Shown here: positions 33,503-54,800 of the stretch, piece after piece
How the letters are laid out: every line of letters starts with the position of its first letter
Numbering within the stretch: position 1 is the first letter of the stretch
Assembly (NCBI GenBank): GCA_037447435.1
Contig: JBBIGR010000014.1
Location: 21,305-85,304, forward strand
Origin: Fibrobacteria bacterium
Lineage (GTDB): Bacteria; Fibrobacterota; Chitinivibrionia; Chitinivibrionales; FEN-1185
Reading direction: 5' to 3'
DNA length: 64,000 nucleotides
Notes under the pieces: model-generated
The model's database searches: none
Told to the model about the DNA's origin: nothing
The model's input: only the letters and a program-made list of their open reading frames with translations
Position numbers and translations under genes: made by a program

Positions 33503-34588
33503 TCAGTCACGCTTCGGGGCGAATTTTGAACCGCCATACATTCCCATATCGTTCCGTGAATTGTCTCCATTTTTAAATTCACCGCTCGGGTTTCCGGCGT
33601 GAATGCACGGAGAATATCGGGACAAAGTATAGCGATCGGACGTTTTTTTCCGTTTTTTTGACGCGGTTGAATCGGACAATTCCGTGTGAAGCGACTTGGC
33701 AAGCACCGTGTCTTTGATGCGCGATTTATCGGTGGGTAAAGAAACATCCCGTTCGACTGCCACAGAGTCGAATTCCGAACCGGCAAAAATAGGGTTTTTA
33801 AATAAATTATTCTTGATATCCGTGGAGTCTTTCCGATCATTTTTCTTTTTAAGAATGCCCAGTTCGGGATCACAATCCAGTAAATTGCCGTCGGAATTTC
33901 CATAAACGCAATTATACTCAAACGTTATAGCCGACGTACCGTCGCACCAGAGCCCATTGCTTTTATTAAAGGCAATAATATTGTTTTGAAATACCGGGTT
34001 TGATTGGGAGCTCTTAATACCGAACGTATAATTGGAGGCGATGACATTATTTATGGCAGTTATATTTCCCCGTTGCTGGCAAACAATACCAACATTATTA
34101 TAATCGATTCGACAATGATGGACATTGGGACTGCAATTTAAAACGCTTATCGCATTATACGCGCCGCTAATATCGGCATACCCGAATTCAACACCTTTTT
34201 CGGGTGCATTTTTAAAAACGATACCGTACCATCGCGGCCCGGCTCCCTTTGCTCCTTCCGGCATAAATGAAATACGTTTATCGGCAATCCCGACGCATTC
34301 GAATCCGCCCTGAACAACAATTGAAATCGTGCCGGAATCCAATGCGTCAAGCTGCGGTACCGCCTTGTTGCGCACACGCTCCTTGCCGATGAGAATAGCG
34401 GTCCCCGGCCCGATTGCAAGATGCGCACTTTTACTCACCATAATATCCTGGGTAACCACATACGGTCCCTCTTCGGCAGTCCAGCGCGTATCTTTATTGA
34501 TAATTCCGCCCACTACCGTTTCCGCATCGGTTGCTCCCGGAAAAACAAAAAGCCCCGTGAATAGCACTATAAAAAAGCGGTTCTTCAT
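33503..34588 (-). CDS. Secreted right-handed parallel beta-helix repeat protein
   Basis: Signal peptide and PbH1-like repeats (CSPNVHHCRIDYNNVGIVC.., NNVIASNYTFGI.., NNIIAFNKSNGLWC..). C-terminus SPCIHAGNP...DMGMYGG. ATGA overlap with the upstream regulator gene. Confidence 0.65.
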   Translation of the reverse strand: MKNRFFIVLFTGLFVFPGATDAETVVGGIINKDTRWTAEEGPYVVTQDIMVSKSAHLAIGPGTAILIGKERVRNKAVPQLDALDSGTISIVVQGGFECVGIADKRISFMPEGAKGAGPRWYGIVFKNAPEKGVEFGYADISGAYNAISVLNCSPNVHHCRIDYNNVGIVCQQRGNITAINNVIASNYTFGIKSSQSNPVFQNNIIAFNKSNGLWCDGTSAITFEYNCVYGNSDGNLLDCDPELGILKKKNDRKDSTDIKNNLFKNPIFAGSEFDSVAVERDVSLPTDKSRIKDTVLAKSLHTELSDSTASKKRKKTSDRYTLSRYSPCIHAGNPSGEFKNGDNSRNDMGMYGGSKFAPKRD

Positions 34589-35547
34589 TCTGTTTCCACC
34601 AAATCTTTGTAAGCGTAATACAGCAAATACTTTTCGTATGTCGGAACAGTAATAAAAAACTGATATCCTTCTATCGGATGAGCATCCGGTTTTGCCGCTT
34701 GTACCTTTACATACGTTAAAATTTCGGAATCCTTGAATTCCGTCAGCACCCTGACATGATCGCGCTCGATTTTCGCCTGAGAACAGGCGGAAATCATGTC
34801 TGCATTCGATATTTCGCTCTTAATTTCGGTTCCGCCTTTTTGTAGTGCAACAAAATTCCCAAGCGAAAAGATAAGCGCAATTGCCTCGGAAGAAAATCCG
34901 GGGATTTTTTCATACGCTTTTTTAAAAACCATTCGTAAATAATCGCAGAAGCCCGACAGCTTGGTTCCGTCCAGTAGAATTATCCTTCCCTCTTTTACCT
35001 CTATGATGCCGTTTGTTTGCAACACATCGAGCAAATGCATAATGCAACGATTATTGACGGTCAAAAGTTGAGACAATTCGCACGTCGTATGAGCGAGATC
35101 CAATTCTCTGAAAGAAGCGGTGCCCGTCGCCGAACCGTGACGCAGAAAATAATAGTGCAACGCTATAATTGTATGTAAACAATGATTCTTGGTTTGAATG
35201 GATTCCAGCCGCGAATTCGCTTTTCGTATTTTTTCGCTGGTCGTTCTAATCATCGACATAAACCAGGCCGGGACACCGCTTATTTTTTTAAGAAACGTGT
35301 CTGCGTCGATCACGATAACGGCTGTCTCTTTAATCGCAAGAGCCGAAGCACTACGCGGCTTACCGTCTATAAGCGCCATTTCGCCGAAAACCGAACCTTT
35401 TGCAAGTTTTGTAAGTTCGACATCTTTTGTACCGATTTTGCGATATATCTTTATCATACCGGATTGAACAATATACAATTCCTGGGAATGGTCGTTCTCA
35501 TGGAAAAGATGGGTTCCGGGTTTGAATGTCTTGGCAAAAGGTTGCAT
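34585..35547 (-). CDS. Cyclic nucleotide-binding domain regulator (Crp/Fnr-like, extended)
   Basis: cNMP-binding signature FGEMALIDGKPRSASALA, followed by a wHTH-like ELSQLLTVNNRCIMHLLDVLQTNGIIEVKEGRIILLD, plus ~120 extra C-terminal residues. Confidence 0.8.
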   Translation of the reverse strand: MQPFAKTFKPGTHLFHENDHSQELYIVQSGMIKIYRKIGTKDVELTKLAKGSVFGEMALIDGKPRSASALAIKETAVIVIDADTFLKKISGVPAWFMSMIRTTSEKIRKANSRLESIQTKNHCLHTIIALHYYFLRHGSATGTASFRELDLAHTTCELSQLLTVNNRCIMHLLDVLQTNGIIEVKEGRIILLDGTKLSGFCDYLRMVFKKAYEKIPGFSSEAIALIFSLGNFVALQKGGTEIKSEISNADMISACSQAKIERDHVRVLTEFKDSEILTYVKVQAAKPDAHPIEGYQFFITVPTYEKYLLYYAYKDLVETE

Positions 35548-42658: not shown

Positions 42659-43684
42659 TTATTCCACGTTTACCGGCAGCATCCACCCATGAGTATCGGG
42701 CTTGTCGCCGTATTGAATGCCGGTAATTTCATTGTACAACCGAGTCAATGTGGCGCCTGCTTCATTTTCTTTTCCAAAGGTATAAATCCGCTCACCGTGA
42801 AGAATCGACGAAACCGGCGTGATGACAACGGCCGTACCGCAGGCTCCCACTTCGGTGAAATCGGCAAGTTCGCTCACATGGATTTTCCGCTTTTCCACTT
42901 TTAGCCCGAAATCCTGAGCAATGACCTGCAAGCTTTTGTTGGTAACACTGCCTAAAATCGACTGCGAATCCGGGGTAACATAGCTTCCGGCTTTTGAAAT
43001 GGCCAAAAAGTTTGATGTGCCGAATTCGTCGATATAGCTGTGCGTTTGCGCATCGAGATATAAACAAACAGGAAAGCCTTTTTTCTTGCCGTCCAGATCA
43101 CCGGCCAACCCTGCCGCATAATTTCCGGCAGCCTTGACATTACCGACACCGAGAGGTGCGGCCCGGTCATATTGCTCCTGGATATACGCTTTCACCGGAA
43201 AAAATCCGTTCTTATAATACGGCCCCATGGGTGTCGCAAGCATGATAAAGACATATTCTTCGGAAGCGTGGACGCCGATATGAGGGCTTGATCCGATAAG
43301 AAAAGGTCTGACATAGAGGCTTGCGCCGGTCCCATAAGGAGGCACATATTGCTTATTAAGAAGAACGAGCTTTTTTGCCATTTCCAAGAACAATTCCTGG
43401 GAAGGCGGCTCCATAACGAGGCGTGTTGCAGAGGTAATAAGCCGTTTGGCATTTTCGTCGGGCCTAAACAAAGCGATGGATTCATCTTTTCTGCCGAATG
43501 CTTTAAGGCCCTCGAATATCGCCTGTCCATAATGCAGACAGGTTGAGGCGATGTGAAGCGAAATATGGGGATCGGTGCAAATTTGGATATCTCCCCACGA
43601 ACCGTTTTTATATTCGCATTTCACATAATACTCTGTTTGCATATATGAAAAGCCGAGATTTTTCCAATCGATATTTTTAGCCAT
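42659..43684 (-). CDS. ilvE: Branched-chain amino acid aminotransferase
   Basis: 341 aa long-form BCAT: ..YGQAIFEGLKAF.., ..GTGASLYVRP.., ..GVGNVKAAGNYA.., ..EVGACGTAVVITPV. Confidence 0.9.
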   Translation of the reverse strand: MAKNIDWKNLGFSYMQTEYYVKCEYKNGSWGDIQICTDPHISLHIASTCLHYGQAIFEGLKAFGRKDESIALFRPDENAKRLITSATRLVMEPPSQELFLEMAKKLVLLNKQYVPPYGTGASLYVRPFLIGSSPHIGVHASEEYVFIMLATPMGPYYKNGFFPVKAYIQEQYDRAAPLGVGNVKAAGNYAAGLAGDLDGKKKGFPVCLYLDAQTHSYIDEFGTSNFLAISKAGSYVTPDSQSILGSVTNKSLQVIAQDFGLKVEKRKIHVSELADFTEVGACGTAVVITPVSSILHGERIYTFGKENEAGATLTRLYNEITGIQYGDKPDTHGWMLPVNVE

Positions 43685-43714
43685 AGTCTACCTCTACTAT
43701 TTGGTTTTCTATCC

Positions 43715-45307
43715 CTATTTCTTCGCAGTATGCTTTCGAGTATCCTTCATAAGTTTATATGTAAGACTATCGATAAGCGCGAGCCATGCGGCTTCGATGA
43801 CATTCGTCGAAACGCCGATAGTACCCCAGCGGTCTTTCCCGTCCGACGATTCGATGAGAACCCGAACCTTTGCGGCCGTACCGTCTCTGCCGTCGAGCAC
43901 CCGGACTTTAAAGTCTTCAAGCTTTACTTCCGATAGATTGGGGTAAAACTTGCACAGCGCCTTCCGGAGAGCATTGTCGAGCGCATTGACCGGCCCGTCC
44001 CCTTCGGCGGCAGTATGCTCGAAATCGCCATCTTTTTGTACTTTGATCGTAGCTTCGGAAAACACGTCTCCGCTTTCCCGTTTTTCTTCTATGACGCGGA
44101 ATCCTTTGAATTCGAAGGTTTTTTTAAACAGCCCGAGCATTTCCTGGGCTAAAAGTTCAAACGATGCGTCTGCAGCCTCGAATTGATACCCATCGGACTC
44201 AAGCGATTTGATTTTCATCAAAAGTTTCTTGACCATAGGGTCCTGTTTGTCGAGATGCGGCATGAATCCGGCGAGTTTTTCAAGCATAGTGCTCGAACCG
44301 GCCTGTGCGGACACCACGAATTGCCGTTGATTGCCGACAAGTGCCGGCTTGACATGTTCAAACGACTCGCTTACTTTGCGAACGCCGTCGGCATGAGCCC
44401 CGGCTTTATGGGAAAACGCGCATTCGCCGACATACGGCTGACGGATATTATGCGTAATGTTTGCTATTTCCGAAACGAATATCGATACTTCGGTCAGTTG
44501 TTTCAGAGAATCCTCATGCAAAACAGGAACGCCGCGCTTTAGCTGGATATTTGGAATTATGGTGCACAAATTTGCATTGCCGCAACGCTCTCCAAGCCCG
44601 TTTATGGTTCCCTGGACCTGGACGGCACCTTCGGCAACGGCAATCATGCTGTTTGCTTCTGCGCAGCCGGAATCGTTATGCGTATGTATGCCGAGCGGGC
44701 AATCGATGCTTGACGCAATAGATCGCCAAACCGAGAGAAATTCATCCGGAAGCATACCGCCGTTTGTATCGCATAAGACAATACAATCGGCCCCGGCTTC
44801 TTTTGCTGCAAACAATGTTTTCAAAGCATAATCCGGATTGTGCTTATACCCGTCGAAAAAATGTTCCGCGTCATACACGACCTCGTCCATGTGCTTTTTA
44901 AGATAGGAAATCGTATCCCCGATGATATCGATATTTTCCTGCAAGGAAAAACGAAGCACATTTGTCACATGCAGATCCCATGATTTTCCGAAAATCGTCG
45001 CGACCGGCGCGCCCGATTTGACAAGCATTTGCAAAAACAGGTCTTCGCCGTACGGCGTGTGCGGCCTCTTGGTTGAGCCGAAAACCGCGAGTTTTGATTT
45101 CAGTTTAAGTTTTTTCGCTTCCTGAAAGAACTCGGTATCGATGGCATTCGTCGGGTTCGGCCACCCGCCTTCAACATACTGGATTCCCAAATCGCTGAGC
45201 CGTTCGGCTATGCGCAATTTGTCGGAAAGAGACAAGCTTATGCCCAATGCCTGATTACCATCGCGAAGCGTGGTATCGTATATTGCTATTTTCTTCTGTA
45301 AATTCAT
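43715..45307 (-). CDS. cimA: Citramalate synthase (LeuA-related, CimA type)
   Basis: IYDTTLRDGNQ and HTHNDSGCAEAN, with 530 aa and a LeuA-dimer-type C-terminus. It is a second LeuA paralog of the citramalate-synthase size class in an ilv/leu operon. Confidence 0.75.
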   Translation of the reverse strand: MNLQKKIAIYDTTLRDGNQALGISLSLSDKLRIAERLSDLGIQYVEGGWPNPTNAIDTEFFQEAKKLKLKSKLAVFGSTKRPHTPYGEDLFLQMLVKSGAPVATIFGKSWDLHVTNVLRFSLQENIDIIGDTISYLKKHMDEVVYDAEHFFDGYKHNPDYALKTLFAAKEAGADCIVLCDTNGGMLPDEFLSVWRSIASSIDCPLGIHTHNDSGCAEANSMIAVAEGAVQVQGTINGLGERCGNANLCTIIPNIQLKRGVPVLHEDSLKQLTEVSIFVSEIANITHNIRQPYVGECAFSHKAGAHADGVRKVSESFEHVKPALVGNQRQFVVSAQAGSSTMLEKLAGFMPHLDKQDPMVKKLLMKIKSLESDGYQFEAADASFELLAQEMLGLFKKTFEFKGFRVIEEKRESGDVFSEATIKVQKDGDFEHTAAEGDGPVNALDNALRKALCKFYPNLSEVKLEDFKVRVLDGRDGTAAKVRVLIESSDGKDRWGTIGVSTNVIEAAWLALIDSLTYKLMKDTRKHTAKK

Positions 45308-45378
45308 AATTTCTTTTCTATTGAAATGGCCTCACCTCTTTCCCCCGAGAGAGACGAGGTGAGGTTGTCAACCTTCAT

Positions 45379-46458
45379 TTATTTGACAAACGATGCGACA
45401 AAATCGCCAAGTTCACGGGTGCCCATGCCCATTTTACCTGCGGCAAGGCTCTTGATTTTGCCTGAAGCGAGCGCATCATGCACGGCGCGTTCGATTGCGC
45501 TTCCCGCAGCTTCTTCGCCAAGGGATTCGAGCATCATACCTGCAGCTGCGATTGCCGCAAGAGGATTGATCACGTTTTTGCCCGTATACTTCGGCGCACT
45601 GCCGCCCATTGGCTCGAACATGGAAACACCTTGCGGATTGATATTTCCGCCTGCTGCGATACCAAGCCCGCCCTGGATGATTGCGGCAAGATCGGTGATG
45701 ATGTCGCCGAAGAGATTTTCGGTCACGATGACATCATAGAATTCCGGACTCTTTACGAACCACATGGTGCACGCATCGACATGGTTGTAATCCTGCTTGA
45801 TGTCCGGATACTCTGCATCACCCATTTCCTTATGGCTCCGTACCCACAAATCGCCGCAATGCGTGAGTACATTGCATTTATGAACGAGCGTGAGCTGTTT
45901 GCGTTTATTGCGTTTACGAGTGAATTCGTACGCATAGCGCATGCATCGGTCGACAATGGGCCGGCTGTATTGCATGACCTGCGTCGCTATTTCATACTGA
46001 GTGCCTTTTTGCGTCGCACCACCGATACCGGTGTAGATACCGCCGGTATTTTCGCGGATCACGACAAAGTCTATATGTTCGGGCCCTTTGTCTTTAAGCG
46101 GCGTTTCGACGTTCGGATAAAGCTTGACAGGCCGTAAATTGATGTATTGATCGAGTGCGAAACGCGCCTTGAGCAATATGCCGAGCTCCAGGATTCCGGG
46201 CTTGACATCGGGATGTCCGATAGCGCCAAGGAATATCGAATCGTGCTTGCGCAATTCTTCGATGGCACTGTCGGGAAGCGTTTCACCGGTTTTAAGATAT
46301 CGCTCGCCGCCGAAATCATAATTTTCGTAATTGAGTTTGACATTATACTTTGCAGCCGCGACATTAAGAACCTTAAGACCTTCATTGACCACTTCCGGAC
46401 CGGTTCCGTCTCCCGGAATCACCGCTATGTTATACGATTTCATGAACACTTGCTCCAT
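45379..46458 (-). CDS. leuB: 3-isopropylmalate dehydrogenase
   Basis: IAVIPGDGTGPEV, VIRENTGGIY and NLFGDIITDLAA..GGLGIAAGGNI signatures. Confidence 0.9.
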   Translation of the reverse strand: MEQVFMKSYNIAVIPGDGTGPEVVNEGLKVLNVAAAKYNVKLNYENYDFGGERYLKTGETLPDSAIEELRKHDSIFLGAIGHPDVKPGILELGILLKARFALDQYINLRPVKLYPNVETPLKDKGPEHIDFVVIRENTGGIYTGIGGATQKGTQYEIATQVMQYSRPIVDRCMRYAYEFTRKRNKRKQLTLVHKCNVLTHCGDLWVRSHKEMGDAEYPDIKQDYNHVDACTMWFVKSPEFYDVIVTENLFGDIITDLAAIIQGGLGIAAGGNINPQGVSMFEPMGGSAPKYTGKNVINPLAAIAAAGMMLESLGEEAAGSAIERAVHDALASGKIKSLAAGKMGMGTRELGDFVASFVK

Positions 46459-46481
46459 TCACGTTAAAAGAAATATGACGA

Positions 46482-48032
46482 TTATAATTTGGGTAAAGGC
46501 AATTTTTTATTGAACTTTTTCATTCGCGCGATTTTATTGACGATATCCATATACGATAAGGCCGATGCCTCGACGATATCGGTGCTGGTCCCAACACCGG
46601 TAAATACGCCTTCTTTACTTCTGGCAACGATCTTCACTTTTCCGAGCGCTTCCCTGCCTTCGGTCAGCGAGGTCAAGGTAAAATCGTCGATGCTGATTTT
46701 GAAACCGGTAATACGGTCTATCGCCTTTGTCGCCGCATCAACCGCCCCGTCCCCGCACGCCGCTTCGAATCGCACTTTATCTTCTTTTGCGACACGGATA
46801 CGGACCGTCGCCGTCGGCACAGTACCTTTGCCGCTTGACACGTTCAAATACTCAAGCACATAGGTGTCGGTCATATCCCCGGCTGTTTTCGACTCCATAA
46901 GGGAAATCAAATCATCGTCGTAGACCGTGCCCTTTTTATCAGCAAGCTCGATGAACCGCGTATAAAACGCCGACACATCGACTTCTTCTATATTATAGCC
47001 CAGCGCAACCAACCTCGAACGGACCATATGACTCCCCGAGCGACTCGTCAGGTTCATACGATTGTCCTTGAGCCCGATGGATTGCGGGGTCATGATTTCA
47101 TATGTTTTCCGCGATTTGAGCACGCCGTCCTGATGAATACCCGACGAATGCGCAAATGCATTGCTTCCCACAACCGCTTTGTTAGGCTGCACCGGCATAT
47201 TGCAGATATCGGAAACAAGTTTACTGGTGCGCATTATCTCCCGAGTCTCGATGCCGACGTCGACCTTGAAAATGTCTTTGCGAACATTAAGCATCATAAC
47301 CACTTCCTCGAGCGCGGCGTTTCCCGCACGTTCACCCAAGCCGTTTATCGCGCATTCGATTTGACGCGCACCATGCGAAACAGCGGTAATGGAATTCGCC
47401 GACGCCATGCCAAGATCGTTATGACAATGCACCGAAATGACGGCCTTGTCGATATTAGGCACACGGTTGAAAAGCGATTCGATTATCCACGCGAATTTCT
47501 CGGGGGACGTATAGCCCACGGTATCGGGAATATTGACCGTCGTCGCGCCGGTTTTTATCACGGTTTCGACGATACGGCACAGAAAATCGATATCCGAGCG
47601 CCCGGCATCTTCCGCCGAAAATTCGACGTCGCTGGTATATTTTTTACACAACTTTACCGCAGCGATTGCCATGGCAACGATTTCATCGTTGGTTTTGCGC
47701 ATTTTCTTTTCCATATGCAGAGCCGACGTGCCGACAAACGTGTGTATACGCGGACGCTCGGCCGGTTTCAAGGCCTTTCCGCATGCAACAATATCTTTTT
47801 CGACAAGCCGCGCAAGCCCGCAGATGACGGGGCCCTTTACTTCGCGAGCAATTGTCGAGACAGACTCGAAATCACCCGGCGACGAAATGGGAAAACCCGC
47901 TTCGATGATATCGACATTCAATTTTTGCAATTGCTTTGCAATACGTAATTTCTGGTGCACCGACAAGCTTGACGGCAATGCCTGTTCACCATCTCTCAAA
48001 GTCGTATCGAATATGAATACTTTGTCTTTCAT
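46482..48032 (-). CDS. leuA: 2-isopropylmalate synthase
   Basis: IFDTTLRDGEQ, HCHNDLGMASAN and the C-terminal LeuA allosteric domain; 516 aa. Confidence 0.9.
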   Translation of the reverse strand: MKDKVFIFDTTLRDGEQALPSSLSVHQKLRIAKQLQKLNVDIIEAGFPISSPGDFESVSTIAREVKGPVICGLARLVEKDIVACGKALKPAERPRIHTFVGTSALHMEKKMRKTNDEIVAMAIAAVKLCKKYTSDVEFSAEDAGRSDIDFLCRIVETVIKTGATTVNIPDTVGYTSPEKFAWIIESLFNRVPNIDKAVISVHCHNDLGMASANSITAVSHGARQIECAINGLGERAGNAALEEVVMMLNVRKDIFKVDVGIETREIMRTSKLVSDICNMPVQPNKAVVGSNAFAHSSGIHQDGVLKSRKTYEIMTPQSIGLKDNRMNLTSRSGSHMVRSRLVALGYNIEEVDVSAFYTRFIELADKKGTVYDDDLISLMESKTAGDMTDTYVLEYLNVSSGKGTVPTATVRIRVAKEDKVRFEAACGDGAVDAATKAIDRITGFKISIDDFTLTSLTEGREALGKVKIVARSKEGVFTGVGTSTDIVEASALSYMDIVNKIARMKKFNKKLPLPKL

Positions 48033-48051
48033 GATTGTAACCGATCATTGC

Positions 48052-48074
48052 AGGGGCACGGCTACCGTGCCCCT
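48052..48074 (-). other. Intercistronic GC-rich stem-loop between ilvC and leuA
   Basis: AGGGGCACGG-cta-CCGTGCCCCT, a 10-bp perfect stem with no U tract. Confidence 0.5.
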
Positions 48075-48092
48075 ACGTGCCAAATGTTTTAA

Positions 48093-49193
48093 TTAATTCT
48101 GTCCTCTTCCGCCGATGCCTTTGGTCTCCTTGGAAATGTCTTTAGCTTTTTCCTTGGGACGTAGAGCGCGAACTGCGGCTCCCGCGCGCCACATTTCATT
48201 CTCATGAACTTCGGCAAGCTTCTTTTCCAGGAACTTCTTATAGTCTTTGCCGCCGCAATCACGGATAACCTCACGGGTTTCCTGGCCGGTTTTAACCGAT
48301 TTGTAAAGCTGTTCGAAAACCGGCAGATTCGCTTTGCGGAAAATGGGCCTCCATTTGAGCGCGCCGTGCTGAGCGGTCGCGGAACAGTTGGAATACATCC
48401 AGTCCATTCCATTTTCGTCAACAAGACGGATAAGACTTTGCGTAAGTTCTTCCGATGTTTCGTTGAACGCTTCCGACGGCGAATGGCCGTTTTTGCGAAG
48501 CACGTCGTATTGTGCCTGCATGATGCCGGCTAATGCGCCCATGAGAACGCCGCGTTCGCCGGTAAGATCGCTATACACTTCTTTTTGAAATGTTGTCGGG
48601 AACAGATAGCCGCTGCCGATGCCGATACCAACGGCCAGGCAACGTTCTTCGGCTCTGCCGGTTGCATCTTGAAAAACCGCATAGCTGGAATTGATTCCAG
48701 CGCCCGACAAAAAGTTGCGGCGAACCGATGTGCCGCTGCCTTTGGGCGCAACCATGATAACGTCGACATTTTTTGGCGGAATCACTCCGGTCTGTTCCTT
48801 ATACACGATAGAGAACCCGTGCGAAAAGTAAACCGCATCGCCTTTTTTGAGAAGCTTTGCTATGGTTGGCCATACTTTACGTTGTGCAGCATCGGAAACA
48901 AGGATTTGGATGATCGTTCCTTTTTGAACTGCCTCTTCGATCGGGAAAAGAGTTTTTCCGGGAACCCAACCGTCTTTCACCGCACGGTCCCAGTCTTTTT
49001 TAAATTCCTTGGACTGTCCGATGATGACGTTTATTCCGTTGTCTTTCATGTTAAGCGCCTGGGCAGGGCCCTGAACGCCGTAACCGATGATAGCGACGAC
49101 TTCTTTTTTAAGAACCTTGCGGGCCTTAACAAGAGAAAATTCCTTACGGGTAACGACGGTTTCCTTCACTCCTCCGAAATCGATGACTGCCAT
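48093..49193 (-). CDS. ilvC: Ketol-acid reductoisomerase
   Basis: VAIIGYGVQGPAQALNMKDNG Rossmann motif, ..FSHGF.., ..ERGVLMGA... Confidence 0.9.
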   Translation of the reverse strand: MAVIDFGGVKETVVTRKEFSLVKARKVLKKEVVAIIGYGVQGPAQALNMKDNGINVIIGQSKEFKKDWDRAVKDGWVPGKTLFPIEEAVQKGTIIQILVSDAAQRKVWPTIAKLLKKGDAVYFSHGFSIVYKEQTGVIPPKNVDVIMVAPKGSGTSVRRNFLSGAGINSSYAVFQDATGRAEERCLAVGIGIGSGYLFPTTFQKEVYSDLTGERGVLMGALAGIMQAQYDVLRKNGHSPSEAFNETSEELTQSLIRLVDENGMDWMYSNCSATAQHGALKWRPIFRKANLPVFEQLYKSVKTGQETREVIRDCGGKDYKKFLEKKLAEVHENEMWRAGAAVRALRPKEKAKDISKETKGIGGRGQN

Positions 49194-49259
49194 AGACTGT
49201 TCTCCTTTGATTGAAAGTGATGTATTAAAAAATGCGATAAATTCACTGTGACCCTCACC

Positions 49260-49742
49260 CTACTTCTTTGTTTGCGCCATTGCAACTTTACCAGTGCGAA
49301 TAAGCTCCTTGACCCCGTACGGCTTTATCAGGTCGATGAAATCGCTGACCGTTTCGCACGGCGCCGACAATTCGAACGTAATCGAGGTCGCTCCGACATA
49401 CGCGACTTTAGCGCCGAACAAGTCGGCAAGCTCTATGATTTCGTGGCGACTCGACTTCGTGGAATCGACCCGAACGAGAATGAATTCACGTTCGATGATC
49501 GAACATCCCTCAAAATCGATTACCTTGATCACGTCGATAAGCTTGTTGAGTTGCTTGACAACTTGCTCGATAATCGCGCTATCTCCCTCGACGACGATGG
49601 TCATCCTGGAAATAGACGGATCTTCGGTTTCCCCGACCGTAAGGCTTGCTATATTGTAACCGCGGCTTGCAAAAAGCCCTGAGATTCTCGACAATGTGCC
49701 GCTATGGTTTTCGACCAGCACCGAAATTGTTCGTGTGTTCAT
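49260..49742 (-). CDS. ilvN: Acetolactate synthase small (regulatory) subunit
   Basis: ACT domain ISVLVENHSGTLSRISGLFASRGYNIASLTV; 160 aa. ATGA overlap with ilvB. Confidence 0.9.
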   Translation of the reverse strand: MNTRTISVLVENHSGTLSRISGLFASRGYNIASLTVGETEDPSISRMTIVVEGDSAIIEQVVKQLNKLIDVIKVIDFEGCSIIEREFILVRVDSTKSSRHEIIELADLFGAKVAYVGATSITFELSAPCETVSDFIDLIKPYGVKELIRTGKVAMAQTKK

Positions 49743-51469
49743 GCTTCCTCCATTGCATCGTCAAGCGATTTTCCGGCCGGGACCATCGGATATACGTTTT
49801 CCTCGGTCGCGGTCATGAATTCCATAAGCGACGGGCCATCGACGGCCAGGCCTTTTTTCAGCACATCGACAACTTCCGAAACCTTGCTGGTACGAAATCC
49901 CGGTATGGCATAGCTTTCGGCGAGCTTGACAAAATCGGGTACGTATCCTTTGCCGCAATTTTCGGGCGACGTGCAATCGCCGCACAGGTTACTGCCGCGT
50001 AAACACGTCGCGCTGTAGCGCCTGTTCCAGAACAATTCCTGCCACTGCCGCACCATTCCCAGATACTCGTTATTGAGAATGAGCACCTTGACCGGGATAC
50101 GGTTTATCGAAATGGTCGCAAGTTCCTGGATGTTCATTTGTATGGAACCATCACCTGCAATATTGACAACCGGTTTCCGCTTCATGCCCAGGCTTGCACC
50201 CATTGCAGCCGGAAGGCCGAACCCCATGGTTCCCAGGCCGCCCGACGACAAAAACATGCGCGGCCGCGCAAACTTGTAATATTGCGCCGCAAACATCTGA
50301 TGCTGCCCCACCTCGGTTGCGATGAGAATATCGGTATTCTTGGTGAGTTCATATAATTGCTCGATGACATATTGCGGTTTAATAACATCATTAGAACTTT
50401 TATAAGTAAACAACTTTCCGTTTTTCCACGAGTCGATTTGAGCGTTCCATTCATTGCGGCTCCGCGGCTCTACGACCTTGTTCAGCGCCGTAAGAATATT
50501 TTTGGCATCGCCCACAACCGGCACATCGACACGGACAATTTTTGAAATCGCGGCCGGATCAATATCAAGATGGATGATCTTGGCATTGGGCGCAAACGAG
50601 GCAACGTGTCCGGTCACACGGTCGTCGAAACGCGCGCCAACGGAAATTATCACATCGGCATTCTGAAACGCCGTGTTTGCCGTTTTAGAACCGTGCATAC
50701 CGGGCATACCGATGAACAAATCATGCTCGCCGGGAAATGCGCCCAGCCCCATGAGAGTCAAGGTAACCGGCGCATTCAGTTTTGTCGCCAATTCAAAAAG
50801 TTCGGCATGCGCTCCGGAAGAGATGACTCCGCCGCCGGCATATACCAATGGTTTTTTTGCCGATTTAATCAGCTCGGCCGCCTTCTCGATTTGACGCGGA
50901 TGCCCCATAAGTGTCGGCTTATAGCTGCGCATCGAAATTTCGGCAGGATACTCATAATTATCAAGATACCCGCGCGAAATGTCGGACGGCAAATCGACGA
51001 GCACGGGCCCCGGCCGTCCTGAGCGGGCGATGTAAAACGCCTGCTTGAGAATTGCCGGAAGGTCTTTGATGTCTTTGACCAGAAAGTTATGCTTTGTTAC
51101 CGGCCTGCTGATACCGACCATGTCGGCTTCCTGAAACGCGTCGGTGCCGAGATACGGGGTCGATACCTGGCCCGTTATCGCGACCATGGGAATCGAATCG
51201 AGATACGCGTCGGCAATACCGGTGATAAGATTTGTTGCGCCGGGACCCGAGGTCGCTATGCAAACCCCGACCTTCCCCGTTGCCCGTGCATATCCTTCGG
51301 CAGCGTGAGCCGCGCCCTGTTCATGACGAACAAGAACCGTATTGATATTCTTTGCATCGTATAATGCATCGAAAATCGGAATTGCCTGGCCGCCCGGATA
51401 GCCGAACAGCACATCGACGCCCTCTTTTGTCAGGGCATCAACAAGAATTTCGGCACCTTTCTTTTTCAA
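49739..51469 (-). CDS. ilvB: Acetolactate synthase large subunit
   Basis: GAEILVDALTKEGVDVLFGYPGG and the ThDP motif GDGSIQMNIQELAT..NN; 576 aa. TTG start with RBS GGAGGA at 5-nt spacing. Confidence 0.95.
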   Translation of the reverse strand: MKKKGAEILVDALTKEGVDVLFGYPGGQAIPIFDALYDAKNINTVLVRHEQGAAHAAEGYARATGKVGVCIATSGPGATNLITGIADAYLDSIPMVAITGQVSTPYLGTDAFQEADMVGISRPVTKHNFLVKDIKDLPAILKQAFYIARSGRPGPVLVDLPSDISRGYLDNYEYPAEISMRSYKPTLMGHPRQIEKAAELIKSAKKPLVYAGGGVISSGAHAELFELATKLNAPVTLTLMGLGAFPGEHDLFIGMPGMHGSKTANTAFQNADVIISVGARFDDRVTGHVASFAPNAKIIHLDIDPAAISKIVRVDVPVVGDAKNILTALNKVVEPRSRNEWNAQIDSWKNGKLFTYKSSNDVIKPQYVIEQLYELTKNTDILIATEVGQHQMFAAQYYKFARPRMFLSSGGLGTMGFGLPAAMGASLGMKRKPVVNIAGDGSIQMNIQELATISINRIPVKVLILNNEYLGMVRQWQELFWNRRYSATCLRGSNLCGDCTSPENCGKGYVPDFVKLAESYAIPGFRTSKVSEVVDVLKKGLAVDGPSLMEFMTATEENVYPMVPAGKSLDDAMEEA

Positions 51470-51667
51470 ACTGTCCTCCAGCTGTTAAATGTGCACTGTT
51501 GCCGTTACTTCGTCTTGTTCAGTGCCGCAAAAAAACAATCTCGTAAAATACCTTGTCCCCATGGGGTAATCAAGGGTACAAGGGCTTTTGTGGCACTTAT
51601 ATAATGAATTATAATAATCACGGTATTCATCTTGGCTTTCTAACCGACACATTCCGTCCAAGCAAGC

Positions 51668-51703
51668 AAAAAAAAAGGCCCGTCTTTTTTAAGAGACGGG
51701 CCT
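51668..51703 (-). terminator. Intrinsic terminator of the ilv attenuator (also the only terminator downstream of metH)
   Basis: The minus strand reads AGGCCCGUCU-cuuaaaaa-AGACGGGCCU followed by a run of 9 U. Confidence 0.8.
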
Positions 51704-51745
51704 TTGGATTTTTCATTACTTACTGTAATATTATAAGCCCGTCTC
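51693..51745 (-). promoter_or_regulatory. Candidate antiterminator pairing of the ilv attenuator
   Basis: GAGACGGGC (51745-51737) is complementary to GCCCGUCUC (51701-51693), the 5' arm of the terminator. The two structures are mutually exclusive. Confidence 0.55.
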
Positions 51746-51838
51746 CTGTTTTGGCAATACGACTACTACCCGTACTACGGCTAGTAGAACGGTACTAATA
51801 ATATTAATAATGCTGTCTGTATATGTTTTTGTAAACAT
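51731..51838 (-). CDS. ilv-leu operon leader peptide (35 aa, Ile/Val/Leu-rich)
   Basis: ATG 51838 to TAA 51733-51731 encodes MFTKTYTDSIINIISTVLLAVVRVVVVLPKQETGL. The stop codon abuts the antiterminator arm. It lies upstream of ilvB. Confidence 0.7.
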   Translation of the reverse strand: MFTKTYTDSIINIISTVLLAVVRVVVVLPKQETGL

Positions 51839-51847
51839 GATAAAATA

Positions 51848-51876
51848 AATATACCGTATATCGGAATTGGAGTCAA
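51848..51876 (-). promoter_or_regulatory. Sigma70-like promoter for the ilv leader
   Basis: The minus strand reads TTGACT-N17-TATATT, 10 nt after the metH stop. It would give a very short 5' UTR before the leader ATG. Confidence 0.5.
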
Positions 51877-51885
51877 TATATTTTT

Positions 51886-54800
51886 TTATTCACTGCGTAT
51901 GGCCGCAGGTTTTTCATACCCTAATACCGGATCCAGCCATTTTTCAACCTCCTCATTTTTCATGCCTTTTCTTCCCGCATACGATTCCACCTGATCGCGA
52001 CCAATGGCCTGCAATCCAAAATACCGCGATTGCGGATGAGAGAAATAATAGCCGCAGACCGACGCGGCGGGATACATTGCCCCGCTCACGGTCAACGACA
52101 TACCGATATTTTTACTTACATCGAGCAATTGAAATATCTGATTCTTTTCGCTATGATCCGGGCAAGCCGGATACCCCGGTGCCGGACGAACCCCTTGGTA
52201 TTTCACACGAAGCATTTCTTTTATTTGTAACGATTCGTGCGGGGCGTAAGCCCAATATTCTTTTCTGACCTTTTCGTGCAGCCATTCGGCGCATGCCTCC
52301 GCGAGCCTGTCGGCAAGGAGTTTTACCATGATTGCGGAATAATCGTCTTTGGCGTTTTCGTATTTAGCAACAACGTCTTCAAGCCCGATCCCTGCGGTGC
52401 AGGCAAAAAGACCGACATAATCCTTTACGCCGCTTTCGATCGGCGCCACAAAATCGGACAGTGAGACGTACTCCGTTTTCTCATTTTTTCTCACTTGTTG
52501 GCGAAGGCAATGAATGGCGGAAAGCTTTGTTTCCCTGGTTTCGTCCGAGTACAAAATAATGTCCTCAAAATCCTTTGTTTGCGCCGGAAAGAAACCGACG
52601 ACCGCTTTTGCAGCAAGCAAGTTATGCGCAACAATTTCATCGAGCAATGCCGCCGCGTCGTCGAACAATTTTTTCGCGGATGGTCCGACAATCGGGTCTT
52701 CCAGTAAATACGGGTACGCGCCTTTTAATCCCCATGCGGAGAAAACGAAATTCCAGTCTATATAGCCTCGCAAATCCCCCAGCGATATAGTATCGAGGAC
52801 AAAGACTCCGTCCTTTTGAGGCTTGGGAGGCTCATACCCATGCCATGAAATCGAGACCCGATTCGATTTCGCTTCAAGGTACGGGATAATTTCCATAGAG
52901 ACATTCGCCTTTTCATGTTTTTCGCGCAAAAGCGTTTGCTTTGCGACAATCTCCTTGCCGAATAAAAACCTGTCTTTTGTATCCACAAGCCTTTGACATA
53001 CCGGAACAGCAAGCGAAGCATCGGCGACATGCACGCAAATACCGCTGTATTGCGTTGCGATTTTAACCGCAGTGTGCATAGGTGAGGTCGTGGCCCCGCC
53101 GATTAAAAGCGGCATGGTTATTTTGCATCGCTCCATTTCCGAAGCAATATGGGCCATCTCCACAAGAGAGGGAGTTATAAGGCCGGAGACGCCGATAAAA
53201 TCCGCTTTTTCCTTTATCGCTGTGTCAAGAATCGTTTCGCATGGAACCATGACGCCCAGGTCAATGACGCGGAAATTATTGCATTGCAGGACTACTTCGA
53301 CGATTTTTTTACCGATATCATGAACGTCGCCTTTGACGGTTGCAAGAACAATCGTTGCCTGCGGCGTTTGGTTTCCGTCGGCGTCGCTTTCCATGAACGG
53401 CAGCAAAATGGCAACGGCCTTTTTCATCACCCGGGCGCTTTTAATCACCTGCGGCAAAAACATCTTTCCTTCTCCGAACAATTTCCCGACCTCGTTCATA
53501 CCGGCCATGAGCGGCCCCTCGATGACTTTCAAAGGCGACCCTATGAGCGCATAGGCCTCTTTCGTGTCATCTTCGACAAACGCGTCGACCCCCTTGACCA
53601 ACGCATAGGTCAAACGCGCGTTTACCTCCATACCGCGCCACGACAAGTCCTCTTTTTTCGCTTTCGATTGCGCGCCGACGGTTTGTGCGAGGTCAAGCAA
53701 CCGCTCCGCCGCGTCTTCGCGCCTGTCAAATATGACGTCTTCGATGCGCTCGCGTAACCCCGCATCGATTGTTTCATACGGAACAAGTTGCCCGGCATTG
53801 ACGATTCCCATGGTAAGTCCGGCTTTAATCGCATGGTATAAAAACGCCGCGTTGATTGCTTCCCGCAGTCCGTTGTTACCGCGAAAGGCAAACGACACGT
53901 TGCTGAGCCCCCCGCTTATGCCGCATTCGGGAAACAACTGCCTTATTCTTTTTACCGCATTGAGAAAATCGATTCCGTATTTTCTATGTTCGGCAAGACC
54001 GGTCGCTATAGCAAAAACGTTTGGGTCAAAAACGATATCGTGGGGGGCAAATCCTAATTGTTCGACCAGCAATTTATAGGCGCGCGAACAAATTTCAACT
54101 TTCCGGATTTCGGTGTCCGCCTGACCTTTTTCATCAAAAGCCATGACAACGACCGCGGCTCCGAATTTCGCTATTTCTTTGGCCCTATTGCAAAAAACGT
54201 CTTCCCCTTCCTTGAGGGAAAGCGAATTGACAATACATTTTCCCTGTACGCATGCCAAGCCTGCAAGCAAAACATCCCACTGCGAGGAATCTATCATTAT
54301 CGGAACATGTGCAATATCGGGCTCGGCTGCAACAAGGTTTAGAAACTCGACCATTGCAGCCTTGGCATCGAGCATCGAATCGTCCATATTGATATCTATG
54401 ACGCTAGCACCATTGTCGATTTGCTGTTTCGCAACCGACAATGCCGCGTCATAATCCTTTGCGCGTATCAGAGCGGCAAATTTTGCCGATCCCGTAACGT
54501 TCGTGCGCTCCCCTATATTTACAAATAATGATTCTGGCCCGACGACGCACGCCGCAAGCCCACTTAAGCAAATACCGGGCTTGCGATGGGGTATTTCGCG
54601 GATCTTCGCATCGATCAACGCCTCGCCGATCGCCCGTATATGAGCGGGTGTCGTACCGCAGCAGCCGCCGACGATATTGACGATGCCGTCGCGTGCAAAT
54701 CCGGCCAGCGTTTGCGCCATTGTTTGGGGCGTTTCGTCGTAGGTCCCATATGCATTCGGTAAACCGGCATTGGGATGAACGCTGATAAAATACGGCGCAA

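Follow-up and report, generated by a model that had tools for sequence, protein, structure and literature searches.

The spacer between metH and ilvB in the DNA analyzed here, a 64-kilobase (kb) stretch of a Fibrobacterota genome (hereafter the window), very likely carries a classical ribosome-mediated leader-peptide transcription attenuator of the operon ilvBNC-leuAB-cimA-ilvE. We favor this reading because the elements themselves, their conservation, their covariation, the predicted energies, and the ribosome geometry all fit it. A preliminary description of the window had proposed an unannotated leader peptide rich in isoleucine, valine, and leucine (I/V/L), together with a mutually exclusive terminator and antiterminator, ahead of the ilv-leu genes. 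That core claim is upheld by the presence of the element in 29 of 31 Fibrobacterota loci, by compensatory changes in its helices, by the geometry, and by its independence from metH. The metH stop codon (TAA) is at 51888-51886 (all coordinates are on the minus strand unless otherwise stated). The seven ilv-leu genes reported downstream are, by NCBIfam assignment, ilvB-ilvN-ilvC-leuA-leuB-cimA-ilvE (42659-51469). They follow metH on the same strand, are co-directional, and are separated by intergenic gaps of -4 to 71 nucleotides (nt). The operon covers valine, leucine, and, since the citramalate synthase gene cimA is present, isoleucine.

The leader open reading frame (ORF; 51731-51838) has 35 codons, from the ATG at 51838 to the TAA at 51733-51731, and translates as MFTKTYTDSIINIISTVLLAVVRVVVVLPKQETGL, just as first described. 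Codons 10-28 (51755-51811) form the regulatory codon block, in which 14 of the 19 residues are I/V/L (4 Ile, 7 Val, and 3 Leu), in agreement with the earlier count. Among the 313 ATG-initiated ORFs of 25-60 amino acids in the six frames of the window, this ORF is the single outlier with 14 I/L/V per 19 residues; the runner-up has 11.

The comparative sample comprised the 500-700 nt 5′ of ilvB in 80 loci, 31 from Fibrobacterota and 49 from other phyla (individual loci are designated by an L and a number). Detailed leader analyses used 27 leader-bearing sequences, window included, and the MAFFT alignment held 24 sequences. The nearest ilvB genes share at most 82% amino acid identity with that of the window, and all are in Fibrobacterota metagenome-assembled genomes labeled Chitinivibrionales, Chitinispirillaceae, or "Fibrobacter sp." An I/L/V-rich mini-ORF preceding a 12 base pair (bp) terminator is found 5′ of ilvB in 29 of the 31 Fibrobacterota loci. 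The two exceptions are L031, which lacks a leader, and L043, in which ilvD abuts ilvB. The preliminary description had suggested looking for the mini-ORF and its I/V/L codons in related genomes, and these 29 loci all retain the ORF at a similar length and I/L/V content, with the stop codon in the corresponding position. The mini-ORF has 30-38 codons in most Fibrobacterota and 19-23 in the more distant L027 (MMPVLKVLFFLLTVVMKKK, at ~2820-2960) and L029 (MCNMNITVVVTVLVLLTGGK, at ~2810-2950). In the 27 leaders, the stop codon falls 16-47 nt (mostly 20-27) before the 12 bp U-tailed terminator, and the I/L/V share is 40% in frame vs. 22% and 10% in the other two frames. The ~49 ilvB loci of other phyla, which served as a negative control, yielded a few weak chance ORFs without accompanying structure. 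The leader invariably lies immediately 5′ of ilvB in the same orientation, regardless of which gene is farther upstream. The upstream genes differ among relatives, and a tblastn search of the relatives with MetH, with a valid positive control, gave no matches; metH is upstream in no relative. Since the upstream neighbor varies and is never metH, the element belongs to ilvB.

The RNA structures can be described as four segments. The terminator, AAAGGCCCGTCT / AGACGGGCCTTT (also written AAAGGCCCGUCU / AGACGGGCCUUU), is a 12 bp helix at 51705-51674 with a predicted energy of -20.5 kcal/mol. It had been described with a tail of nine U; the helix stands, and the T-run at 51676-51668 does contain nine T, yet 1-3 of these lie in the stem, which leaves a free tail of 6-8 U. 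Segment 4 (51668-51685) consists of the terminator 3′ arm (51685-51674) and this U tract. Segment 3 (51692-51705), defined from the terminator and the covariation analyses, is the terminator 5′ arm and is common to the antiterminator. Segment 2 (51726-51746) takes in the last sense codons of the leader ORF, the stop codon, and 5 nt beyond, and is supported by folds, by three repeats (I4, I5, and D2), and by covariation. As the preliminary description held, the ORF end copies the terminator 3′ arm, and GAGACGGGC at 51745-51737 is an exact copy of it (direct repeat D2). An independent repeat search likewise matched 51678-51685 with 51737-51744. The ORF end can also pair with the terminator 5′ arm, as had been noted, being 100% complementary to 51701-51693; this is the perfect 9 nt inverted repeat I5 (51693-51701 with 51737-51745), extendable to 12 bp, which forms the proposed antiterminator.

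Segment 1 (51788-51806) lies in the Ile/Asn/Ser/Thr/Val codons 11-17 and was recognized from the minimum free energy (MFE) fold and from inverted repeat I4, in which 51726-51737 and 51795-51806 are 92% complementary over 12 nt. In the MFE fold, 51806-51788 pairs with 51743-51726, so that the anti-antiterminator (1:2) helix joins the Ile-codon region to the ORF end and stop codon. Segment 2 thus has two alternatives, 51743-51726 with segment 1 or 51746-51735 with segment 3. Neither the I4 repeat nor the 1:2 helix had been noticed earlier; by the predicted folds, this helix makes the element a full four-segment attenuator (1:2 / 2:3 / 3:4). ORF bodies do not align column by column, so the 1:2 helix was judged by folds and codon-permuted controls. 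Segment 2 pairs upstream in leader-only folds of 26/27 sequences, and 1:2 pairing relative to the controls has a mean z of -2.1 over the 27 leaders (16 of them below -1.64; the window at -2.81). The Leu/Val codon hairpin described earlier, CUACUA-G-CCGU-AGU-ACGG-G-UAGUAG (51763-51787), is present in the MFE fold as an inner hairpin nested within the 1:2 domain. Its sequence is not conserved, although relatives usually have some local hairpin there, and it is a possible pause hairpin. The fold of the 186-nt leader as a whole has a z of -6.45 against dinucleotide shuffles.

Covariation supports both helices that involve segment 3. It had been suggested that the arms be examined in relatives for compensatory changes, and the 24 aligned sequences contain them in seven terminator pairs and five antiterminator pairs. 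The terminator helix has standard pairs in 91% of cells, and the antiterminator helix, in which the ORF end pairs with the terminator 5′ arm, is paired in 90%. Sliding the antiterminator partner columns by one reduces the pairing to 58-65%. The three-way covariation can also be followed by eye: GAGACGGGC with GCCCGUCUC in the window, GGGAAACGGGC with GCCCGUUUCCC in L006, GAGAGCGGGC with GCCCGCUCUC in L026, and GCAGGU with GCCUGC in L023 and L025. The RNA coding for the C-terminal "ETG" of the peptide varies among GAGACGGGC, GAAACGGGT, GGAACGGGA, AGCGCAGGT, and AGAGCGGGC, always with a matching terminator arm, and the residues become GTG, GMG, SAG, RAG, or ETA as the RNA changes. Since the residues at the ORF end vary while the match to the terminator arm holds, the constraint is on the RNA and not on the peptide. 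A covariance model with 24 members detected L014, which had been held out, with a score of 75.7 bits, and gave 40 to 23 bits for the divergent L015, L012, L024, L029, and L027. In the 64-kb window it gave one strong match (74.1 bits, 51666-51763, minus strand), and nothing above 29 bits was obtained in other phyla.

Energies and ribosome geometry were computed for the alternative structures. Taken alone, the 2:3 region of the window is predicted at -17.4 kcal/mol and the 3:4 terminator at the -20.5 kcal/mol given above. A comparison of the two states had been recommended with the original proposal; for the full window leader, the form with 1:2 and 3:4 is at -52.9 kcal/mol vs. -44.1 kcal/mol when the antiterminator is imposed. 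This difference falls to 0.9-3.3 kcal/mol once a ribosome footprint occupies codons 11-18. With so small a gap under a stalled ribosome, whichever helix forms first, namely 2:3, would decide the outcome. When segment 1 is masked and segment 4 is absent, a 2:3 helix of at least 7 bp appears in the MFE fold of 27/27 sequences. The preliminary description had a ribosome at the UAA blocking the antiterminator and a stall on I/V/L codons freeing it, and the geometry bears this out in both directions. A footprint at the stop codon abolishes the antiterminator in 26/27 leaders, and in an A-site scan along the ORFs 305/354 I/L/V codons (86%) still allow the antiterminator under the stalled ribosome.

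The proposed mechanism is as follows. Transcription from the promoter-like site P1 would start at the AUG of the 35-codon ORF or within ~3 nt of it, and a ribosome would probably load directly at the 5′ terminus, in the manner of leaderless mRNAs. With an ample supply of charged Ile-, Val-, and Leu-tRNAs, it would reach the UAA and cover segment 2 (GGAGACGGGCUUAUAA). The 3:4 terminator could then form, and RNA polymerase would stop near 51668, in the U tract. A shortage of any one of these amino acids would stall the ribosome within codons 10-28, where it would break the 1:2 helix but leave segment 2 free. Free segment 2 would pair with the terminator 5′ arm (2:3) before segment 4 is made, with read-through into ilvB as the result. 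Without translation, 1:2 and 3:4 would form and transcription would terminate, and this default would also end transcripts reading through from metH. Leaderless initiation would not take place on metH read-through transcripts, and these are therefore expected to end at the attenuator. The hairpin thus probably serves as the metH terminator as well. It had been suggested that the hairpin would be taken for a plain metH terminator; the element is indeed tied to ilvB, yet metH transcripts probably end there too. Translation of the ORF, its leaderless start, and a response of read-through to the branched-chain amino acids are inferred.

P1 is a promoter-like site, TTGACT (51876-51871)-N17-TATATT (51853-51848), with 10/12 consensus matches. 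It is present where originally described, at a distance of 9 nt from the metH stop codon and not the 10 nt then stated. Equivalents of the form TTGnnn-N17-TAnnnT lie 5′ of the mini-ORF in most relatives, and the site is called from its consensus match and this conservation. We found no clear promoter 5′ of the leader ORF in L004 and L005. From the end of the P1 -10 hexamer to the leader ATG there are 9 nt in the window and 6-9 nt in ~20/27 relatives. No purine-rich Shine-Dalgarno site precedes the leader ATG in the window or in the ~20/27 relatives with 6-9 nt spacing. Because the -10 box is so close to the ATG and a Shine-Dalgarno site is lacking, the leader ORF of the window is probably leaderless or has a 5′ untranslated region (UTR) of at most 3 nt. 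L002, L003, L015, and L018 differ in having a UTR of 15-26 nt with an AAGGA, GAGG, or GGAG motif. Leaderless leader ORFs are also known elsewhere, e.g., the mycobacterial Cys leaders. [quoted passage not shown]

A Pro codon (CCN; codon 29 in the window) is kept 6-8 codons before the stop, following the Ile/Val/Leu run (VIIP, IIIP, VLP), in L006, L007, L009, L010, L016, L019, L025, L030, and the window. It is the A-site position at which the ribosome begins to occlude segment 2. Several relatives have CCC here, which pairs with GGG in segment 2. A comparable VVIIIPP occurs in E. coli IlvL. The best sigma-70 match in the spacer is in fact internal to the leader ORF, across segment 2 (TTGCCA-N16-TATAAT, 51757-51730, minus strand, 11/12). 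We judged it fortuitous as a promoter because the closest relatives do not have the TATAAT and the transcript would hold only the terminator. The TATAAT probably arises incidentally from the AU-rich 1:2 helix.

A second promoter candidate, P2, lies between the attenuator and ilvB. It reads TTGATT (51573-51568)-N17-TATTTT (51550-51545), has 8/12 consensus matches, falls below the scanner threshold, and is 75 nt before the ilvB TTG start codon (51469-51467), which is preceded by a Shine-Dalgarno site, GGAGG (51479-51475), that is kept in the alignment. Of the 27 leader-bearing sequences, window included, 21 retain the P2 hexamers and a spacing of 17-18 nt, while the sequence of the spacer drifts. 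P2-like sites occur 18-120 nt past the attenuator terminator in L002-L033, often as ...AGGTCGTATTTTA. Beyond the 21 sequences, TATATT variants can be recognized by eye in 3-4; L012, L013, and L026 have TTGAyT-N16-18-TATATT. We considered a second structured RNA element between P2 and ilvB and dropped it, as RNAalifold found 0 conserved pairs from P2 to the ilvB start in 15 relatives. Since hexamers and spacing are conserved without conserved pairing, a promoter is the most economical reading of P2. No convincing promoter specific to ilvB had been recognized past the terminator in the preliminary description, and these results make that statement doubtful. From its sequence and conservation, P2 is likely to provide transcription that bypasses the attenuator in this subclade, and it may be that only transcripts from P1 are subject to attenuation.

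The alternative that survives best follows from P2. It holds that the operon is transcribed mainly from P2, and that P1, the leader, and the terminator provide a small boost on starvation or act as an insulator/terminator for read-in from upstream genes such as metH. The retention of the P2 hexamers and spacing against a drifting spacer, the TATATT variants, the lack of any conserved RNA structure that would account for the conservation, and the absence of a terminator belonging to metH before P1 all speak for it. However, the antiterminator-terminator covariation would be selected only if regulated read-through matters downstream, and P2 has just 8/12 consensus matches. Furthermore, in L027 and L029 the terminator is ~30-35 nt from the ilvB Shine-Dalgarno site and no P2-like site is present, so that P1 read-through must express ilvB there. 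We regard this alternative as possible, at well below even chances.

A more elaborate arrangement of the same parts is that the leaderless design acts as a promoter-specific gate and insulator, with a constitutive floor from P2 and a starvation-gated boost from P1. Only P1 transcripts, with the AUG at their 5′ end, would then be translated and antiterminated. Read-in from metH would always fold into 1:2 and 3:4 and stop, and P1 read-through might also modulate P2. This proposal is speculative, and we hold it to be improbable. To our knowledge, a starvation-gated attenuator in tandem with a second promoter downstream has not been described for amino acid operons.

It is unlikely that the same RNA structures are switched by a protein, a tRNA, or a small ligand, with the I/L/V-rich ORF not acting as the sensor. 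There are grounds to consider such a switch, as Bacillus subtilis controls ilv-leu by a tRNA-sensing T-box. Mutations in the leader codons of Streptomyces coelicolor ilvB also left regulation unaltered (PMC1262725). No T-box or riboswitch was found by Rfam at gathering or relaxed thresholds. Over the whole 64-kb window at gathering threshold there was no match to leader families, T-boxes, or riboswitches. On the spacer with E-values up to 10, the matches were sub-threshold and terminator-driven, the best being Thr_leader at 30.6 bits vs. a threshold of 55. The frame, the length of ~30-38 codons, the frame-specific I/L/V content, and the stop codon over segment 2 are kept in highly diverged sequences. 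The idea is disfavored because an untranslated RNA leaves the conserved frame, length, and stop unexplained.

Even less probable is that the mini-ORF makes an independent small hydrophobic membrane peptide or toxin, expressed as a unit of its own and playing no part in ilv regulation. In favor of this are the hydrophobicity of the peptide, the resemblance of some homologs to a single transmembrane helix with basic flanks (e.g., L013, MRSKAAIASLVLAIIASIAAVAGIVVGIVILVKKRSAG), and the promoter-like site and terminator that belong to the ORF, possibly followed by a separate ilvB promoter. A free-standing peptide would not need to be always directly 5′ of ilvB and co-oriented with it, nor would the antiterminator covariation have a purpose. 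Most leader peptides have R, N, D, E, or G within the hydrophobic run, and F (2.7%), M, and W (0.2%) are scarce relative to I+L+V (40%). The C-terminal residues, as described above, are free to change provided that RNA pairing is kept. Finally, that the hairpin, although the first intrinsic terminator after metH on the same strand, is a plain metH terminator with a chance frame before it has next to no probability, being contradicted by the tblastn search with MetH, by the upstream neighbors (ORF and terminator are kept before ilvB where metH is not upstream), by the extreme position of the ORF among the 313 small ORFs, and by the covariation of the helices.

Several points weigh against the attenuator. 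Equilibrium energies slightly favor the terminator over the antiterminator, and the model therefore relies on co-transcriptional kinetics, as do all classical attenuators. Given the conserved P2 3′ of the terminator, the attenuator could account for only a small part of ilvB transcription. Every relative is a metagenome-assembled genome, and kinship among the sequences inflates the covariation statistics. The result in S. coelicolor, where regulation stayed the same after the candidate regulatory codons of the ilvB leader were mutated (PMC1262725), is a caution that sequence-based prediction of attenuators can fail.

A leader-peptide attenuator in Fibrobacterota can be compared with several known systems. 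The E. coli ilvBN (IvbL) and ilvGMEDA (IlvL) attenuators share the mechanism and the four-segment logic, and ilvGMEDA senses all three branched-chain amino acids, as proposed for the leader in the window. The E. coli ilv leaders have Shine-Dalgarno sites, whereas the window leader does not. The likeness to E. coli IvbL pointed out earlier is correct insofar as its Val runs are split by Arg (MTTSMLNAKLLPTAPSAAVVVVRVVVVVGNAP in the MG1655 annotation); the Arg is not kept in relatives, however, and is thus incidental. We rejected homology to the E. coli ilvBN attenuator, to which the Fibrobacterota covariance model matches in the terminator half only, at 15.7 bits. Judged from the sequences, the likeness is convergent. 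The B. subtilis ilv-leu T-box leader belongs to the same type of operon and also terminates transcription prematurely in the leader, but the window has no T-box.

The nearest described analog is ilvBNC of Corynebacterium glutamicum, which has an I/V/L-rich leader ORF before ilvB, a near-leaderless start, and extra promoters 3′ of the leader. [quoted passage not shown] The model for C. glutamicum also includes a hairpin at the 5′ end that prevents leaderless initiation. C. glutamicum differs in belonging to Actinomycetota, and its leader has no sequence similarity to that of Fibrobacterota. Its extra promoters make ilvNC and ilvC transcripts, whereas the candidate P2 of Fibrobacterota sits between the attenuator and ilvB, and the operon in the window, ilvBNC-leuAB-cimA-ilvE, is longer than ilvBNC. 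In the ilvB leaders of Mycobacterium and Streptomyces, including M. tuberculosis ilvB1NC, a short ORF containing stretches of Ile/Val/Leu codons precedes or overlaps a terminator 5′ of ilvB (PMC1262725; PMC13236596). The leader ORF in these cases overlaps the terminator itself, unlike the window, where the stop codon is ~25 nt before the terminator and there is a separate, covarying antiterminator. Staphylococcus aureus ilv-leu has an attenuator with a Leu-rich leader peptide, together with CodY (PMC5794164). The S. aureus peptide is directed to Leu only, while the window codons include all of I/V/L.

The Fibrobacterota ilvB attenuators are in effect a new phylum-level family of ~29 sequences, though the mechanism is a textbook one. 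In the searchable literature, we did not find a paper linking Fibrobacter with leader-peptide attenuation or a transcription-start study for Fibrobacter. Pfam and NCBIfam searches of six leader peptides with E-values up to 10 returned weak matches to hydrophobic segments and no leader family (IlvB_leader/IvbL, IlvGEDA_leader/IlvL, or Leu_leader). The statement that the mini-ORF escapes ORF calling agrees with an exact look-up of 10 leader peptides in a collection of 15 billion proteins, in which nine were absent and one was present without a name. Classical leader-peptide attenuation would thereby be extended to a poorly studied phylum of fiber and chitin degraders, and the covariance model could improve the annotation of metagenome-assembled genomes, where leader ORFs are essentially never called. 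The value of the family lies in annotation and comparison and not in a new concept. Two side-points are the probable leaderless translation in the phylum, suggested by leader ORFs that begin 6-9 nt past a -10 box without a Shine-Dalgarno site, and an attenuator followed by a conserved second promoter-like site.

Some smaller features were seen around ilvB. In several relatives, CTGTTTT follows the P2 -10 box, and a short CCUUG...CAAGG hairpin over the P2 -35 box is visible by eye in several, although RNAalifold gave it no support. Just 5′ of the ilvB Shine-Dalgarno site, the window subclade (the window, 51486-51526, minus strand, and L002-L005) has a stem-loop whose arms seem to covary (GCACUG...CAGUGC in the window, GCACU...AGUGC in L002 and L003, and GUGCG...CGCAC in L004).

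Elsewhere in the window, the largest intergenic gap is 593 nt between divergent genes (34589-35181); a search of 34500-35250 against Rfam with E-values up to 0.01 gave no match. Within the 3′ end of metH, a terminator-like hairpin, CTGCG-TATGGC-CGCAG, with a T-rich run is found on the plus strand (51893-51908). Read on the minus strand, the hairpin precedes an A-rich run, and metH is thus without its own terminator before the leader. The operon itself carries cimA/ilvE (43715-45307, minus strand) but not ilvA, ilvD, or leuCD. This implies isoleucine synthesis via the citramalate route, with the missing genes elsewhere, and fits a leader that senses Ile besides Val and Leu.

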